From contig JACAFS010000016.1 of NCBI GenBank assembly GCA_013378385.1, positions 1 to 19,128 of the forward strand: a stretch of 19,128 nt of DNA. The letters are read 5' to 3'. A model generated the notes under the pieces. That model searched no databases. It had not been told where the DNA came from and saw nothing but the letters and a program-made list of their open reading frames with translations. The DNA is from Nitrososphaerota archaeon (GTDB lineage Archaea; Thermoproteota; Nitrososphaeria; Nitrososphaerales; UBA57). Both the position numbers and the translations under genes were made by a program. Shown piece after piece: positions 8,976 through 15,114 of this stretch (its first letter is position 1; each line of letters begins with the position of its first letter).

Positions 8976-9680
8976 TTATTCTTTTAAAACATAAACAGAA
9001 TGAATTGAATCAAACATGGACCAAAGTATATCCTCAGTAAACAATACAGAATCTACTGCTTTTAGTTGCATTTCATAAGAATCAGCATATTTCACAACAA
9101 TATTGAAAGCTATTTGGCTGTCTTTCCGAGCTTGGGCAGATAAGGACATAAAATAACCGAGTCCGTTAGGGTCGATAAAATCTCCATAATGTTTAGACAA
9201 GGCATAAACACGTTTATCGATTGCAGCTGACAAGAATAGTTGATTAAGGGAAGTTGAAATTCCCTCAAACCAAGAATGTGTCTTAACATAATTTAATAAT
9301 GAATCAGATGCAATACGTACACCTGGCAAATAATTATCTAAATATAATGATTTTTTATTCATACCTGTTGATTCGGCGAATTTAATCCATCCTTGTATAG
9401 CGCCTTCAGATTCTGAATAACCGTCGTATTCCAGTATTCGTGAAATCCAAAGCCTACGAACGTCAGATAAAGGGCAATTAGAAATCACAGCGCCGTCTTT
9501 CAATGGAATCATATTTTGATAATAGAACCAATTAGTGATCCAACCATGTATTTGAGTTTTGTTTAGTTTCCCTTCGTATAAGAGCGTGTTAAATGGATGC
9601 TTATCAGGATAGCGTTTTTTTGCTTCGCTTTTGATTAGTGCAAGAAACTTGTTTCGAGGCAATGGTTTCTTGTTTGACAT
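8976..9680 (-). CDS. pqqC: PqqC-family protein (pyrroloquinoline-quinone synthase-like, heme-oxygenase-like fold) with a divergent substrate pocket
   Basis: Full-length by-eye collinearity with bacterial PqqC: QIHGWITNWFYYQNMIPLKDGAVISNCP..VRRLWISRILEYDG; LPGVRIASDSLLNY; SLNQLF; EDILWSMFDSI. I prefer the ATG at 9680. The ORF-track start at 9713 is a TTG. Confidence 0.75.
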   Translation of the reverse strand: MSNKKPLPRNKFLALIKSEAKKRYPDKHPFNTLLYEGKLNKTQIHGWITNWFYYQNMIPLKDGAVISNCPLSDVRRLWISRILEYDGYSESEGAIQGWIKFAESTGMNKKSLYLDNYLPGVRIASDSLLNYVKTHSWFEGISTSLNQLFLSAAIDKRVYALSKHYGDFIDPNGLGYFMSLSAQARKDSQIAFNIVVKYADSYEMQLKAVDSVLFTEDILWSMFDSIHSVYVLKE

Positions 9681-9760
9681 AGAAAAAATATAGGTAGAAT
9701 CTAATAAAAACAATACGTAATCAATATATTGGTTTACACTCTATTTAGAATCAATATCAA

Positions 9761-10460: not shown

Positions 10461-11468
10461 TTATTTTTTTAAGACTTTATCGACGTCGGTATTAAATGCC
10501 TCGTCGGTTGTAACATGATTTTTAAATAAATTTTGGAATAATTGTCTATCCTTATCAGTATTATTTATTACATCGAGTGATGGGAAAATTGAGTATTTTT
10601 CATTTGGCAATATATTGGAAATCGAGTATTTAGAATCGGATTCTATATAGGCTGGAACTCGGATGTAGTTATTGCCAATCATATTCTGGCCTTCTTTGGA
10701 GAGTATATAATCAATGAATAATTTAGCAGATTCTAGATTACTAGAAGTCTTTAGTATAGAGGCGACAGTAGCGGAGATGTATAAAGGAATATCTGAAAGA
10801 ATGAGTCTCTCAATAGGAAGGTTCTTGTCTTTTGCACGAAGATATTCATAAAACATAACTGTAAGACCGATATCGCTTTTTCCAAGACTGACACTGCCGA
10901 GAACGTGTCTGAATAATGGCCAAAGTTGTAAATTTTGATGTGAAAGTAGATTTATGAAGCGGCTCCAATCGATGCCAGTCAAATTACTACGAAGAGAAGA
11001 TATCCAATTACTTCCAAATGTTCCAAGAGTTATGTCATGTATAGATATACGGTTTTTCCATCGATTGTCAAGTAGATCTTTAGAGCTTGTAGGAACCTCG
11101 TCAACATCAATAAGTTCACGATTGTAGATTTGCATAGTAGGTAAGAGTACGACGGATGTCCAGAATCCTTCTGAATCTTTGAATGACTCGGGAATATTAC
11201 GTCTTTCGGGAGAGTTATAAACTTGAAATAAGTCTTGATTTTGCATCTGTAAATGTGGAGAAATTGCACTCAGAACTATATCTGCGGACGAACCGGTGTT
11301 TGATAAATCATGTGTAATTTGTGTAGACATGGGAGGAGGCGTTCCGTATACATATTTACGCAAGTATTCAATTTTGATGTTTGGATGAACTTTATTGAAA
11401 CCAATTATCCAAGAATCGAATTCCCAGGTTTCGATTGTGCCATAAATAATTAGTTTATTATTACTCAA
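10461..11468 (-). CDS. Fe3+-type SBP-fold protein without signal peptide; paralogue of the 7050..8096 product
   Basis: 335 aa. It aligns by eye with the other SBP: LIIYGTIETWEFDSWIIGFNKVHPNIKIEYLRK vs LVYGSVDAEDMQTTIDAFHEAYPDIKIDYVRG; FKDSEGFWTSVVLL vs LKDPDGYWQGVLLL; RWKNRISIHD vs KWNGKITMHD. The TTG start overlaps the upstream TGA (TTGA). An in-frame TAA two codons upstream rules out a longer N-terminus. Confidence 0.65.
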   Translation of the reverse strand: MSNNKLIIYGTIETWEFDSWIIGFNKVHPNIKIEYLRKYVYGTPPPMSTQITHDLSNTGSSADIVLSAISPHLQMQNQDLFQVYNSPERRNIPESFKDSEGFWTSVVLLPTMQIYNRELIDVDEVPTSSKDLLDNRWKNRISIHDITLGTFGSNWISSLRSNLTGIDWSRFINLLSHQNLQLWPLFRHVLGSVSLGKSDIGLTVMFYEYLRAKDKNLPIERLILSDIPLYISATVASILKTSSNLESAKLFIDYILSKEGQNMIGNNYIRVPAYIESDSKYSISNILPNEKYSIFPSLDVINNTDKDRQLFQNLFKNHVTTDEAFNTDVDKVLKK

Positions 11469-13255
11469 TTTTTAATCCTACGTCTAGTTACTATTGTAGC
11501 ATAGATTAGAGATACAAGAGTGATTGCAAATAATAGATAATCGTAAGATGATTCAGAAGATTCATCAACTGACATAGAGACAAGGATGCCAGGATTATTG
11601 CCAGTTAATGTGCCGCCTCCCATTGGAAACACAACCATCATTGAGCCTTTTGCATCAGCGCCAATAGAAGGACCCGCAGAACCCATTGAATTGAAAGGTA
11701 TGGAATTAAGGATTGTTCCATCTTCTATGTCGATAGCATAGAATATCCCACTGCGATCTATTGAATACAATACATCGGCACTTACAATTAGAGAAGCGCT
11801 TTGTATTCGATCGGGGATAGTTATTTGCCATTTTAATTCAGAAGTAGATAAATCAATAGCGTATATAGAACCATTTGTTGGTCGATCTAGATCAAGACGG
11901 TATACATAGCCGTCAATAACTTCTCCCTTGTATTCTAACTGTCTTGTAAGAACAGTTCCACAGACATTCTGAGATGGGATATATGCAACGTTATCAGCAA
12001 CAGACATTCCAGCAAATACACCGCCTAATTGACTAGGGCAAAATATTTCGCCGACATACTTGGTTTGGGATGCATACATATCGGATTGATTTTCAGTGTT
12101 TTCGTTTGTTAGATTATAACTTTCTGGACCAAAATGTATAGGCTTGTGAATTAGATCTCCAGTGAGAGCATCTACTACATACAAATAATTACTTTTTGAA
12201 GCAGCAATGATTGCTTTACGGTCTACGTCATTTACAGAAATAGTCGTATAAACAACTTTCCAACCGGGATCATTATTATTGATATCATGAGTGCTCATCT
12301 GGTAATACCATTTTAGAGTTCCAGAATTTATATCAAGTGCAACAATAGAGCTTGAGAACAGATTAGGGCCAGGACGGAGAGCTGCGTCAAATTGATTTGC
12401 AGGTTCGCCTGTCAAAAGAAACAATGTTTCAGATTCTTCGTCAATTGCAACTAATCCCCAAGATGTACCTCCAGCAATATAATTAGTATAGCCCCAATCA
12501 TTTTCAAATGGTAGAATATTACCCAATTTTGCTTCGTCGTATCCCCAGTTTAATTCACCACCTGCAGGTGGGGAAGAAAACCACTGCCAAACTAACTCTT
12601 TAGTTTCTAGATCATAGGCAGACACATATCCACGTCCGCCGAATGCATTTCCCTGTGCCCTAGTTATTAGAAGATTATTATAAAAAGTAGGTGCAAATGG
12701 AGAGAAATATTCGCCGTTATTTCCAGGGATATTAGAACACGTTTCGGGTAATTCGAATACTACATCACCGGTTATTAAATCGAGGCCGTAGATAGAACAT
12801 TCGCTAGTCTGAACATAAACAGCGTCTTCATGTATTGTAAGTGATCTCATAGCAAGTCGTTTTGCCCAAACTTCAGTATTCTTAAAATCATTAATATCAG
12901 GTTTAAAAGACCATAACGGACTACCATCCATAGCATCAATTGCATAGACTTCATTGTAACCAGTTGCGACATATACAATTCCTTGGTAAATCAATGGAGT
13001 AGTCTGAATTCCTTCGGGAGGAACTATATCATCGTCTAGAGGTTCTACACTATCGAATTGATAAATCCAATTAAGTTCTAAGTTTTTAACATTATCTTTT
13101 GAAATTACGGTTTGTGGGCTAAAACCTGTATTGTACTTATCAAATGCAGAATACTTCCAATCAAAGACACTTTCCGAACTCACAGTAGAGATATTACCGA
13201 CAAATAATAAGAATATTAAAAAAGTTAATAGCTTATACAATAGACTTCTAAACAT
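11465..13255 (-). CDS. PQQ-dependent dehydrogenase-like 8-bladed beta-propeller (quinoprotein family), secreted, with C-terminal TM tail anchor
   Basis: Family blocks: FSPQTVISKDNVKNLELNW; EGIQTTPLIYQGIVYVATGYNEVYAIDAMDGSPLW; GGRGYVSAYDLETKELVWQW; GGTSWGLVAIDEE..LFLLTG; IVALDINSGTLKWYYQMSTHD. The signal peptide is MFRSLLYKLLTFLIFLLFVGNISTVSS, from the ATG at 13255. A longer ORF starts at the ATG at 13300. The C-terminus is YLLFAITLVSLIYATIV-TRRRIKN. Confidence 0.75.
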   Translation of the reverse strand: MFRSLLYKLLTFLIFLLFVGNISTVSSESVFDWKYSAFDKYNTGFSPQTVISKDNVKNLELNWIYQFDSVEPLDDDIVPPEGIQTTPLIYQGIVYVATGYNEVYAIDAMDGSPLWSFKPDINDFKNTEVWAKRLAMRSLTIHEDAVYVQTSECSIYGLDLITGDVVFELPETCSNIPGNNGEYFSPFAPTFYNNLLITRAQGNAFGGRGYVSAYDLETKELVWQWFSSPPAGGELNWGYDEAKLGNILPFENDWGYTNYIAGGTSWGLVAIDEESETLFLLTGEPANQFDAALRPGPNLFSSSIVALDINSGTLKWYYQMSTHDINNNDPGWKVVYTTISVNDVDRKAIIAASKSNYLYVVDALTGDLIHKPIHFGPESYNLTNENTENQSDMYASQTKYVGEIFCPSQLGGVFAGMSVADNVAYIPSQNVCGTVLTRQLEYKGEVIDGYVYRLDLDRPTNGSIYAIDLSTSELKWQITIPDRIQSASLIVSADVLYSIDRSGIFYAIDIEDGTILNSIPFNSMGSAGPSIGADAKGSMMVVFPMGGGTLTGNNPGILVSMSVDESSESSYDYLLFAITLVSLIYATIVTRRRIKN

Positions 13256-13361
13256 AGAATAGAGCAATAAAGCTTCACAATAATGAGAAAAATAATTCAT
13301 TTTTGGGTAACTAAAGCAATTTTTCTAAAGAAAGTGTGTATTGGAAGTAAAATTAGATTTA

Positions 13362-14087
13362 ATGAACAAGATTAATTGTGGAGATACCCTAGATTTAATG
13401 AAGAATATAGAGTCAAATTCGGTACATCTAGCAATAACGTCGCCGCCGTACAATGTAGGAAAAGACTACGACAGTCACAATGATTTAATGGAATATGATG
13501 AATATTTGAACTGGTTAACAAAAGTTTGGATTGAGACAAAGAGAGTATTAATAGATGGAGGAAGATTTGCATTAAATGTAGGTCCTACAGGAATAAGAGA
13601 TTTCAGGCCTTTGCATCATGACTTGTCAAACAGATTAAGAGAAATCGGAATGATATTCAGAACAGAAATTTTATGGTATAAACAAACAATGTTGAAAAGA
13701 ACGGCATGGGGAAGTTGGAAGAGTCCAAGTAACCCGCATATAATTCCATCATGGGAATATGTATTAATTTTTAGCAATAATTCCATGAAATTAGAAGGAG
13801 ACAAAACAAAATCAGATATTACAAGAGATGAATTTCTCAATTTCTCCGATGGTCATTGGAACATATTACCTGTTACAAAAAATAGAAAAGGGCATCCTGC
13901 ACCATTTCCAGAAGAATTGATCTACAGATTAATAAAATATTATTCGTACGAAGATAATACGATATTAGATATGTTTGGAGGAACTGGTACTGTTGCTTCA
14001 GTTGCTACAAAAAATAACAGGAACTTTATACACATAGATATATCTGAAGAATATTGTGAAATTGCATCTAACCGAATAAAAAAATAG
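13362..14087 (+). CDS. DNA methyltransferase, beta-class N4-cytosine/N6-adenine family (PF01555-like), no adjacent endonuclease
   Basis: Motif IV (AITSPPYN) comes early. HPAPFPEELIYRLI and then motif I (LDMFGGTGTVASVA) come late, which is the beta-class order. I prefer the ATG at 13362. The ORF-track start at 13341 is a TTG. Confidence 0.8.
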   Translation: MNKINCGDTLDLMKNIESNSVHLAITSPPYNVGKDYDSHNDLMEYDEYLNWLTKVWIETKRVLIDGGRFALNVGPTGIRDFRPLHHDLSNRLREIGMIFRTEILWYKQTMLKRTAWGSWKSPSNPHIIPSWEYVLIFSNNSMKLEGDKTKSDITRDEFLNFSDGHWNILPVTKNRKGHPAPFPEELIYRLIKYYSYEDNTILDMFGGTGTVASVATKNNRNFIHIDISEEYCEIASNRIKK

Positions 14088-14088
14088 A

Positions 14089-15114
14089 TTAAGATTGAAT
14101 TGCTTTAATTGTGTTTTTCCACCAATAAGACATCTCAGGTGACATGTTAGAGTCAAATGGAAGATAGAAATTAATACGATCCAACAGGCCAGAATATTTT
14201 TTTATGGCAAGAGGGGCAATTTCGTTAGGAGTGCCAATTATTGCAACAGTTTCAAGAATTTCATCAGTAATTAGTTTAGGCATGTCCTTAAAGTTACCAG
14301 AAGAAGACAATCGATTAAGTTCCTTGGCAATGTCGCCCCAACCATGCGTCTCAAGCACCTTAGAATATGTAGGGGTGGATGAATAGAATGCAATCTGTGA
14401 TCGAACAAATTCCCTGGTTTTTATCATTGAATCAGAATCAGGACCGGTAATAACGAAGGCAGATCCGCTTATTGAAACGTCTTTAATATTGCGATCGTGA
14501 GATTCGCAGCCAATTTCAATATTTGGAATAATAAAATCTTCTATGTATTCTTTAGTATGCAAAGGATGAACATGAAAACCATCACATACTTCCCCTGCGG
14601 CTTTACATAGCGATTCATTTACACCAGCAATATAGATAGGGATGTTAGGATGGTCTATAGGTCCAGGATTAAAGAAAGGAGTCATAAGATTTAGCTTATA
14701 ATAATTTCCATTGAAATTCAAGGGAGTTTGAGTTTGCCAACAATCCCATATGTGGCGAATGCAAGAAATTATTTCCTTGAGTTGAGAAACAGGAGAATCC
14801 CAGGGCATTCCGAATCTTCTTTTTACATGAGATCTTACCTGTGTACCAAGACCTAAAAAGAATCTTCCGTTAGAAAGCTGTGATAAATCCCAAGAAGTAT
14901 AAGCAAGAACCATCGGACTTCGTGCCAATGCAACAGAAATAGCAGTACCTAATTTAATTTTATTTGTATTTTGAGATGCAATGGAAAGAGGAAGAAAGGG
15001 ATTATGTTTAGTTTCACTAGTCCACATACAATTAAAACCAATTTCCTCAGCAGCGATAGATAATTTAGAAATATCATTAATCGAATAATCAGCAAAAACG
15101 ACGTCAATATCCAT
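14089..15114 (-). CDS. Luciferase-like monooxygenase (LLM) class oxidoreductase, probably F420-dependent
   Basis: 341 aa with a TIM-barrel LLM pattern: LSIAAEEIGFNCMWTSETKHNPFLPLS, LGTAISVALARSPMVLAYTSWDLSQLSNGRFFLGLGTQV and IYIAGVNESLCKAAGEVCDGF. Confidence 0.7.
   Translation of the reverse strand: MDIDVVFADYSINDISKLSIAAEEIGFNCMWTSETKHNPFLPLSIASQNTNKIKLGTAISVALARSPMVLAYTSWDLSQLSNGRFFLGLGTQVRSHVKRRFGMPWDSPVSQLKEIISCIRHIWDCWQTQTPLNFNGNYYKLNLMTPFFNPGPIDHPNIPIYIAGVNESLCKAAGEVCDGFHVHPLHTKEYIEDFIIPNIEIGCESHDRNIKDVSISGSAFVITGPDSDSMIKTREFVRSQIAFYSSTPTYSKVLETHGWGDIAKELNRLSSSGNFKDMPKLITDEILETVAIIGTPNEIAPLAIKKYSGLLDRINFYLPFDSNMSPEMSYWWKNTIKAIQS

Follow-up and report, generated by a model that had tools for sequence, protein, structure and literature searches.

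A quinoprotein-like propeller from a heterotrophic marine thaumarchaeon of the deep sea may, as we tentatively propose, still bind PQQ together with a metal, in a site that is rearranged but conserves charge. The expansion of this family in such archaea, with its membrane anchors and missing Cys-Cys pair, has already been published (Aylward & Santoro 2020, PMC7300363), as have the thaumarchaeal PQQ-dehydrogenase subfamilies (Sheridan et al. 2023, PMC10640624), and the present protein is a real, moderately surprising variant within it; what is added here is the x/Asp/Asn/Asp state of its active site, the constraint on that site, the coupling to an SBP gene and the adjacency of pqqC. The motifs scored in those two studies were Cys-Cys, DYD and DXD only, and neither reports a paralogue in which Ala replaces Glu, Asp replaces Asn and Asn replaces Asp, or the coupling of such a paralogue with pqqC and a signal-less SBP gene.

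The host genome of about 1 Mb (0.997 Mb, 96% complete) contains 25 matches to PF01011, which collapse to about 15 quinoprotein genes. The gene described here lies in the window, that is, the whole 19,128-nucleotide stretch of DNA that was analysed; archaeal rRNA genes are found inside the window as well. The coding sequence and the segments that bear on its topology are:

11465–13255, reverse strand: coding sequence of the quinoprotein-like propeller, 596 amino acids plus stop
13175–13255, reverse strand: N-terminal signal peptide or signal anchor, residues 1–27 (MFRSLLYKLLTFLIFLLFVGNISTVSS), Kyte-Doolittle maximum 1.98
11486–11545, reverse strand: C-terminal transmembrane helix, residues 571–590 (YDYLLFAITLVSLIYATIVT), from the AlphaFold2 model and Kyte-Doolittle hydropathy
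11468–11485, reverse strand: basic cytoplasmic tail RRRIKN, from translation and hydropathy

The initial annotation had placed the start at the ATG at 13255, and this is the real start because the orthologues are 596–598 amino acids long; a longer open reading frame on the same strand (11465–13300) is not used by them. The protein matches the Pfam family PF01011 (PQQ) with 173 bits against a cut-off of 26.7, its AlphaFold2 model has a pLDDT of 89.8 and a pTM of 0.86, and the top 30 Foldseek matches are all PQQ ADH/MDH structures (TM 0.64–0.78), among them qhADH, XoxF and PedH (1kb0, 6dam, 4mae, 6zcw; TM 0.70–0.78). The fold is that of the eight-bladed PQQ-dehydrogenase propeller. A BamB-like reading was dropped on score and TM, given that BamB/YfgL-type PQQ_2 propellers, which have about 380 amino acids, reach 42 bits against 285 and TM values of 0.42–0.46. 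Exactly two hydrophobic segments were detected by Kyte-Doolittle analysis, residues 1–27 and residues 571–590, and both are modelled as helices, the first as a helix of residues 2–20 followed by a low-confidence linker (20–28). An archaeosortase-type signal (PGF/PEF-CTERM) was also considered for the C-terminus and dropped, since there was no NCBIfam match and no such motif in the propeller.

Residue equivalences were established by pairwise phmmer, MAFFT multiple and hhalign profile-profile alignments, the last with a probability of 100% and an E value of 8e-70 over 501 columns. As reference we used the MxaF residues Arg109 and Arg331 (PQQ-binding), Trp243 (PQQ-stacking), Glu177 and Asn261 (metal-binding) and Asp303 (catalytic base). 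The positions of interest, in the order of the protein, are:

12866–12868, reverse strand: Trp130, conserved, in the canonical Cys-Cys stretch
12845–12847, reverse strand: Arg137, equivalent of PQQ-binding Arg109 of MxaF, retained
12629–12658, reverse strand: Glu block AQGNAFGGRG, with Ala204 (12644–12646) at the metal-Glu position
12458–12460, reverse strand: Trp266, equivalent of PQQ-stacking Trp243 of MxaF, retained
12356–12409, reverse strand: GEPANQFDAALRPGPNLF block, with Asp290 (12386–12388) at the metal-Asn position
12260–12292, reverse strand: THDINNNDPGW block, with Asn327 (12275–12277) at the catalytic-Asp position and Asp329 (12269–12271) at the lanthanide-type position
12194–12196, reverse strand: Lys354, equivalent of PQQ-binding Arg331 of MxaF or Lys of type II ADH, retained

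The Glu block aligns with GGAEYGVRG of 1kv9 and GGEFGVVG of PedH, and the replacement of Glu by Ala204 in all three kinds of alignment bears out the non-canonical block (GNAFGGRG) that had first been read from the letters alone. The same holds for the catalytic block, where THDINNND aligns with PGDSWDFT and PHDGWDFD and where phmmer, MAFFT and hhalign concur that the catalytic Asp has become Asn and that the lanthanide-position Asp is retained two residues on; no alignment recovers the canonical Glu or Asp in register. The metal-Asn block, which had been described as altered (GEPANQFD), is so inasmuch as the canonical Asn is absent; the position is not lost, however, for it holds Asp290, a possible metal ligand. 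Aligned to the XoxF-type GNPGPDWNGDPRPGDNLY, the block GEPANQFDAALRPGPNLF needs no gap; aligned to PedH, it needs one. Asn287 takes the metal-Asn position only in the pairwise alignment with 1kv9, and the idea that it is the retained metal Asn was dropped, since the ungapped XoxF-type match, the PedH alignment, hhalign and the basal relative P0045 (see below) all give Asp290. Because this nearly clade-invariant Asp stands at the Asn position, the metal site looks swapped, not destroyed.

The pocket is under constraint. The active-site substitutions are identical in orthologues of 84–97% identity from other assemblies, and the Asp/Asn/Asp state of residues 290, 327 and 329 persists down to 45% identity; within the orthologue group, Asp290 and Asp329 are invariant and Asn327 is nearly so, being Thr in one sequence. 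Of the eight site positions defined a priori, six do not vary, whereas over the whole protein this is true of 153 of 540 residues (p about 0.008). Five of the seven genomes of the same genus have an orthologue, as do further genera of the family, and the protein as a whole is under purifying selection, with a dN/dS of 0.06 relative to an 85%-identical orthologue. That the gene is a decaying pseudogene, or a product of faulty assembly or sequencing, is hardly credible, the missing catalytic residues being all that speaks for it: the frame is intact, the sequence cluster has 165 members, and that dN/dS together with 97%-identical copies in two other genomes refutes it.

The loss of the canonical catalytic residues could also be understood if the propeller funnel were reused for other chemistry without any cofactor, as in tetrathionate hydrolase (6l8a), which is among the Foldseek matches and illustrates that the fold can work without PQQ. 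We consider this improbable, given that the TM to 6l8a is only 0.46 as against the values above for PQQ enzymes (a tetrathionate-hydrolase-like fold was dropped on scores and this TM), and that Arg137, Trp266 and Lys354, whose only known role is the holding of PQQ, do not vary among 12 sequences that extend down to 45% identity.

The earlier proposal of a divergent quinoprotein clade is borne out by the family scores, which lie far under the curated cut-offs of all named families: 225.4 bits against 480 for TIGR03075 (MxaF/XoxF/ExaA/PedH/qhADH), 112 against 833 for TIGR03074 and 182 against 650 for TIGR04528, its second-best NCBIfam match. In the tree it falls into a well-supported, archaea-only clade (SH-aLRT 100, stem length 0.95) apart from the characterised bacterial enzymes, and this clade also holds the other paralogues of the host genome; the possibility, left open at first, that it belongs to a characterised clade with the same motifs is answered by this placement, as none shares them. 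Within the thaumarchaeal expansion it lies in a sub-branch that we call clade B and that has abandoned the canonical Glu/Asn/Asp triad. Because its basal member, P0045, is still canonical (Glu/Asn/Asp/Asp), the site appears to have shifted stepwise within clade B. In most of its sub-branches, two or more of the four ligand positions are still acidic; the catalytic-Asp position reads N, T, G, F, Y, E, Q, R, S or D across clade B, and the neighbouring His, conserved in most of the clade, is Asn in the host genus. The clade A paralogues of the host genome, about eight in number, retain the canonical Asp, Asn, Lys and Trp.

The fold, the topology, the residue states and their conservation, the purifying selection and the gene context are shown by these results, whereas the binding of PQQ and of a metal, catalysis and the passage of electrons are what we infer. 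The N-terminal signal peptide directs export of the propeller, and the C-terminal helix with its inside-facing RRRIKN anchors it to the external side of the cytoplasmic membrane. PQQ would lie between Trp266 and the Trp130 region, the latter in place of the Cys-Cys ring, and Arg137 and Lys354 would hold it. Shifted ligands would bind the metal, namely Asp290 (formerly Asn), Asn327 (formerly the catalytic Asp) and Asp329 (lanthanide-type), the Glu being gone; with respect to Ca-type MxaF (Glu, Asn, Asp, Ala), this would amount to a charge-conserving double swap giving Ala, Asp, Asn, Asp. An extracellular substrate could then be oxidised, with Asp329 as the likeliest substitute base, and its electrons would pass to the membrane. 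Several observations count against a working PQQ/metal site: the Glu strand contains no acidic residue in any register of the alignments, hhalign places an invariant Phe414 at the position of MxaF Asn394, a PQQ contact, and the drift at the catalytic position together with the change of His to Asn is what one would expect if the catalytic centre were relaxed.

The host fits what is known of HMT/HMN quinoproteins (PMC7300363, PMC10640624), with its genome of about 1 Mb that encodes roughly 15 paralogues and has pqqC as its sole pqq gene, and so does its protein, which belongs to the same monophyletic archaeal clade, has a signal peptide and a C-terminal TM anchor and lacks Cys-Cys. The initial annotation was right that no vicinal Cys-Cys pair is present (the stretch reads EVWAKR) and that there are two membrane-targeting segments; neither is peculiar to this protein, however, as signal peptides occur in 15 of 21 HMT families, TM segments in 19 of 21 and Cys-Cys in 0 of 21 (PMC7300363). 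With XoxF/PedH/ExaF (6dam, 4mae, 6zcw) the protein shares the eight-bladed fold (TM 0.72–0.78), the PHD...D motif, in which an Asp follows the catalytic position by two residues, an ungapped RPG.NL(F/Y) block, the Trp platform and the Arg/Lys contacts to PQQ; in contrast to them, it lacks the metal Glu, the catalytic Asp and Cys-Cys, has Asp for Asn, is membrane-anchored and is only 19–21% identical. We know of no cytochrome c partner in these archaea. Its best sequence (E 2e-35) and structural matches are the type II quinohaemoprotein ADHs (1kv9, 1kb0, 1yiq), which likewise have Lys, not Arg, at the PQQ-contact position, but it has no haem c domain and shows the same active-site losses with respect to them. 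TIGR04528 is named "acido-empty-quinoprotein group A" in NCBIfam, a name that implies something other than a standard PQQ holoenzyme; it is likewise a quinoprotein homologue but of a different lineage, and its cut-off lies far above the score of our protein.

Two neighbouring genes have to be considered in this connection:

10461–11468, reverse strand: signal-less SBP_bac_6-type protein, whose TTG start overlaps the TGA stop of the propeller by 4 nt (TTGA)
8976–9713, reverse strand: PqqC homologue, the sole PQQ-pathway gene detected in the host genome, syntenic with the propeller across genera

The overlap indicates that the propeller is probably translationally coupled to the SBP-like gene, and their adjacency is kept in four further loci (L001, L002, L019, L020). 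In methylotrophs, xoxF-xoxJ and mxaF-mxaJ also consist of a quinoprotein gene followed by an SBP-fold accessory gene; the analogy ends with the proteins, XoxJ and MxaJ being exported members of another SBP family and the SBP-like protein here being devoid of a signal peptide. The order propeller-SBP-PqqC or propeller-PqqC is preserved in other genera at 58–59% identity and is absent in 47%-identity orthologues. As an unrelated DNA methyltransferase and an LLM oxidoreductase are kept in the same synteny block, synteny was dropped as proof of function. In locus L007, a PqqC gene adjoins the genes of a complete ABC importer, and the signal-less SBP type is encoded in the operon of that importer. 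Neither pqqE nor pqqB nor pqqD was found in the host genome; because pqqC stands alone there, some form of salvage would be needed, and even the supply of PQQ is questionable, which counts against our proposal.

These features bear on the main rival of our proposal, which we regard as doubtful though deserving of serious weight, namely that the propeller is a non-catalytic, quinoprotein-fold binder (a pseudoenzyme) whose pocket accommodates PQQ, a PQQ precursor or another planar anion without oxidation, and which would serve the surface capture, storage or hand-over of the cofactor together with the SBP-like protein, PqqC and the ABC importer. Neither the general base nor the metal Glu is present, the formerly catalytic position drifts in clade B while the whole protein is strongly constrained, and the gene overlap, the conserved order, the importer at L007 and the need for salvage would all fit; a precedent is PqqT, a bacterial PQQ-binding SBP (PMC12124388). 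However, the adjacency may be mere inherited order, as the co-retained methyltransferase and LLM oxidoreductase suggest, and it is lost in the more distant orthologues. Moreover, the propeller lies outside the cell and the SBP-like protein and PqqC inside, with the six-residue tail as the sole possible connection, and the invariant Asp290 and Asp329 are more easily reconciled with a metal site than with a simple carrier. The narrower claim that the propeller is not a dehydrogenase at all but the capture and hand-over part of a salvage module with these partners seems unlikely to us.

The physical linkage of pqqC to this propeller, and the score of its product under the PqqC cut-off (216 against 240 bits), would also be expected if the homologue converted an imported precursor into a modified PQQ-like cofactor, to which Ala204, Asp290, Asn327 and Phe414 would be the adaptation. 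We hold this to be about as unlikely, since the alignment of the homologue with genuine PqqC structures runs from end to end (E 6e-46) and the clade A paralogues with canonical sites presumably use the product of the single PqqC as well.

Returning to our tentative proposal of a rearranged PQQ/metal site, its interest lies in the loss of the textbook Glu and catalytic Asp from one conserved core paralogue whose pocket is nevertheless constrained and shows a charge-conserving ligand swap. Asp290, Asn327, Asp329 and Ala204 are the residues that bear on a possible third kind of quinoprotein metal site. A genome with pqqC only, and the linkage of propeller, SBP and pqqC, raise the question of the cofactor source in these archaea; if the salvage module were real, it would feed some 15 quinoproteins from PQQ or a precursor in seawater in an archaeon without pqqA, B, D and E. 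HMT/HMN archaea are plentiful in the dark ocean. Quinoprotein genes, all of them annotated as glucose or alcohol dehydrogenases, rank with the most highly expressed genes of these archaea, and to our knowledge no archaeal quinoprotein of this clade or family has been characterised so far. Given a paralogue with such an altered site, the blanket annotation as "PQQ dehydrogenase", and the models of carbon oxidation built on it, may be wrong for part of the family.

The propeller, as we call the PQQ-dehydrogenase-like protein, is encoded at window 11465-13255, exactly as the initial annotation had it, because its orthologues in other assemblies (596-598 aa) start at the second Met of an open reading frame that spans 11465-13300 on the minus strand. 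The N-terminal signal and the C-terminal hydrophobic helix followed by RRRIKN, both read from the sequence at the outset, are also confirmed: the hydropathy profile has two hydrophobic stretches and no more, at residues 1-27 and 571-590. The fold is that of a quinoprotein (PF01011, 173 bits). Its top sequence match in the PDB is the type II quinohaemoprotein alcohol dehydrogenase 1kv9 (E 2e-35), an AF2 model built from 39 sequences (pLDDT 89.8, pTM 0.86) has eight blades plus an N-terminal and a C-terminal helix, and the best 30 Foldseek matches (TM 0.64-0.78) are without exception PQQ dehydrogenases acting on alcohol or methanol. All curated family cut-offs are missed widely (TIGR03075, 225 versus 480; TIGR04528, 182 versus 650).

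Active-site residues were mapped in four ways: by phmmer pairwise alignment with 1kv9, 1kb0, 1yiq, 8gy2 and PedH, by two MAFFT alignments with references, and by one profile-profile alignment that set the orthologue group against canonical enzymes of bacteria (probability 100%, E 8e-70, 501 columns). In MxaF, Glu177 is the metal ligand and Asp303 the catalytic residue.

Positions on which all four alignments agree (MxaF numbering first)
Metal Glu177: Ala204
Catalytic Asp303: Asn327
Lanthanide-type position (two residues further on): Asp329
Vicinal Cys-Cys: none

The initial annotation had proposed each of these, namely a changed metal Glu, a catalytic Asp turned Asn with Asp kept at the lanthanide position, and no vicinal Cys-Cys pair. 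It had also called the metal-Asn block non-canonical, which stands with the correction that the canonical Asn position is Asp290, because GEPANQFDAALRPGPNLF of the propeller matches the XoxF-type GNPGPDWNGDPRPGDNLY ungapped. Asn287 took that position in the 1kv9 pairwise alignment only, and was set aside in favor of Asp290 on the strength of the ungapped match. The propeller has two conserved Cys pairs (C153/C173 and C406/C432), neither of them the canonical vicinal one.

Conserved cysteines (window positions, minus strand)
12797-12799: C153
12737-12739: C173
12038-12040: C406
11960-11962: C432

C406 and C432 are invariant throughout clade B, the archaeal sub-branch that holds the propeller, and the joint loss of C153 and C173 in three relatives (P0034, P0037 and P0041) suggests that these two may form a disulphide.

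Five of the seven other genomes of the genus carry an orthologue of 85-97% identity, the two without a match being 71% and 75% complete; other genera of the family have orthologues of 47-58% identity, and of 19 other families sampled from the order, 18 gave nothing at E 1e-60 or better. Compared with the 85%-identical orthologue dN/dS is 0.06, with synonymous sites saturated, and we give an artefact next to no credence. Across 12 sequences that reach down to 45% identity there is no variation at Arg137, Trp266, Asp290, Asp329, Lys354 or Phe414; one sequence has Thr for Asn327, and position 204 is Ala, Val or Phe. Since six of the eight site positions defined a priori are invariant, versus 153 of 540 residues overall (p ~0.008), the old active-site pocket is, at the sequence level, constrained above average, though two textbook residues are gone.

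In a maximum-likelihood tree all thaumarchaeal sequences fall in one clade (SH-aLRT 100) with two branches. Clade A includes the host genome's HD(L/M)WD(Y/W/M)DCSW paralogues, which keep the catalytic Asp, Asn and Lys. Many archaeal quinoproteins of this clade carry the Glu-block acid six, not four, residues before the conserved Arg-Gly (E-G-x-x-x-G-R-G), as seen in the host's paralogues on contigs C10, C14, C32 and C70 and in the relatives P0123 and P0126; MAFFT misplaced a gap at this block, and some other members have no acid there at all. Clade B contains the propeller, two or three other host paralogues and relatives from other archaea. Only ~25-30 of 1.8 billion cluster representatives, searched exhaustively, exceed 190 bits, so that clade B is a modest, discrete family.

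Site states in clade B (metal Glu / metal Asn / catalytic Asp / lanthanide position)
P0045, basal: still Glu/Asn/Asp/Asp
P0030, P0032: E/D/G/E
P0034, P0037, P0041, P0110: D/(D or E)/E/E
P0033, P0108: x/D/F/E
P0035, P0109 and the host's C28_8748: G/D/G/(E or A)
Propeller group: x/D/N/D
P0043, P0044, P0114 (locus L008): none of the four ligands; Trp platform (now Arg) and Lys (now Phe) lost too

The last sub-branch looks, from its residues, like a fully "empty" quinoprotein-fold protein. Two further fragments in the host genome, C14:3-752 (minus strand) and C67:1-1146 (plus strand), correspond to the N- and C-terminal parts of a P0030-like clade B paralogue; each stops at a contig edge, and they are probably a single gene split by assembly, whose site state would be D/D/D/E.

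We tentatively read the propeller as a rearranged-site oxidoreductase in which Asp329 might serve as base, and would give this somewhat less than an even chance. The pocket is predicted still to hold PQQ and a metal, which is favored because residues with no known function other than holding PQQ are kept, because Asp290 and Asp329 are invariant, and because the exchange of Glu, Asn, Asp and Ala in MxaF for Ala, Asp, Asn and Asp conserves charge. The main rival, less likely than this reading but ahead of the rest, is a non-catalytic binder, which may be linked to cofactor salvage together with the neighboring SBP and PqqC. Three observations count against the oxidoreductase: the residue at the former catalytic position varies freely within clade B, the conserved His adjacent to it is lost in this genus, and the equivalent of Asn394, a PQQ contact in MxaF, is Phe414, a pattern typical of pseudoenzymes. 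A modified cofactor is improbable, and a cofactor-less protein with different chemistry slightly more so.

Genes around the propeller (window positions)
8976-9713, minus strand: PqqC homologue
10461-11468, minus strand: SBP_bac_6-type protein
13341-14087, plus strand: PF01555 DNA methyltransferase
14089-15114, minus strand: TIGR03617-family F420-dependent LLM oxidoreductase (415 bits)

The TGA stop of the propeller overlaps the TTG start (TTGA) of the SBP gene, whose product lacks a signal peptide and, among solved structures, is closest to an SBP that binds PLP and to SBPs that bind Fe(III). Beyond it lie two small ORFs, the PqqC homologue, a regulator of the ArsR-HTH/V4R type and an SBP paralogue that is exported. 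With TIGR02111 the PqqC homologue reaches 216 bits, just short of the cut-off of 240, and it aligns with PqqC structures (E 6e-46). Throughout the genus the genes follow one another as methyltransferase, propeller, SBP, mini-ORFs, PqqC, regulator, SBP, and other genera (58-59% identity) keep propeller-SBP-PqqC or propeller-PqqC. A 39%-identical relative has PqqC and, next to it, a complete ABC importer 6 kb away, with the signal-less SBP type between permease and ATPase (L007); orthologues of 47% identity do not show the propeller-PqqC linkage. On another archaeal contig, an array of about eight PIN-domain (VapC-like) genes, each with a small partner gene, lies upstream of a 46%-identical orthologue (L006, 1-7300). 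The methyltransferase and the LLM oxidoreductase stay beside the propeller across the genus, the former also in other genera, which indicates a block conserved by descent; because the block includes unrelated genes, synteny alone is weak evidence of shared function.

The host genome (0.997 Mb, 96% complete) has 25 Pfam-PQQ matches that collapse to ~15 genes; the window is its contig 8 and ends in an archaeal 23S and a partial 16S rRNA gene. Its size and quinoprotein count fit the heterotrophic marine Thaumarchaeota (HMT/HMN) of Aylward & Santoro (PMC7300363), who described 21 quinoprotein families, all lacking the Cys-Cys pair, with DYD in 4 and DXD in 5, signal peptides in 15 and TM segments in 19, and a "PQQ synthase" gene. 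Family expansion, Cys-Cys loss and membrane anchoring are thus already published; we found no literature report of the conserved x/Asp/Asn/Asp state, of its step-by-step origin from a canonical ancestor inside that clade B, or of a signal-less SBP gene that is translationally coupled to the propeller and neighbors the only pqq gene. Searches of the 96%-complete assembly found no pqqE, pqqB or pqqD. De novo PQQ synthesis by the known route therefore lacks support here, against the inference in PMC7300363, drawn from pqqC alone, that these archaea can make PQQ. The host seems more likely to salvage PQQ, or a late precursor, than to make it itself.
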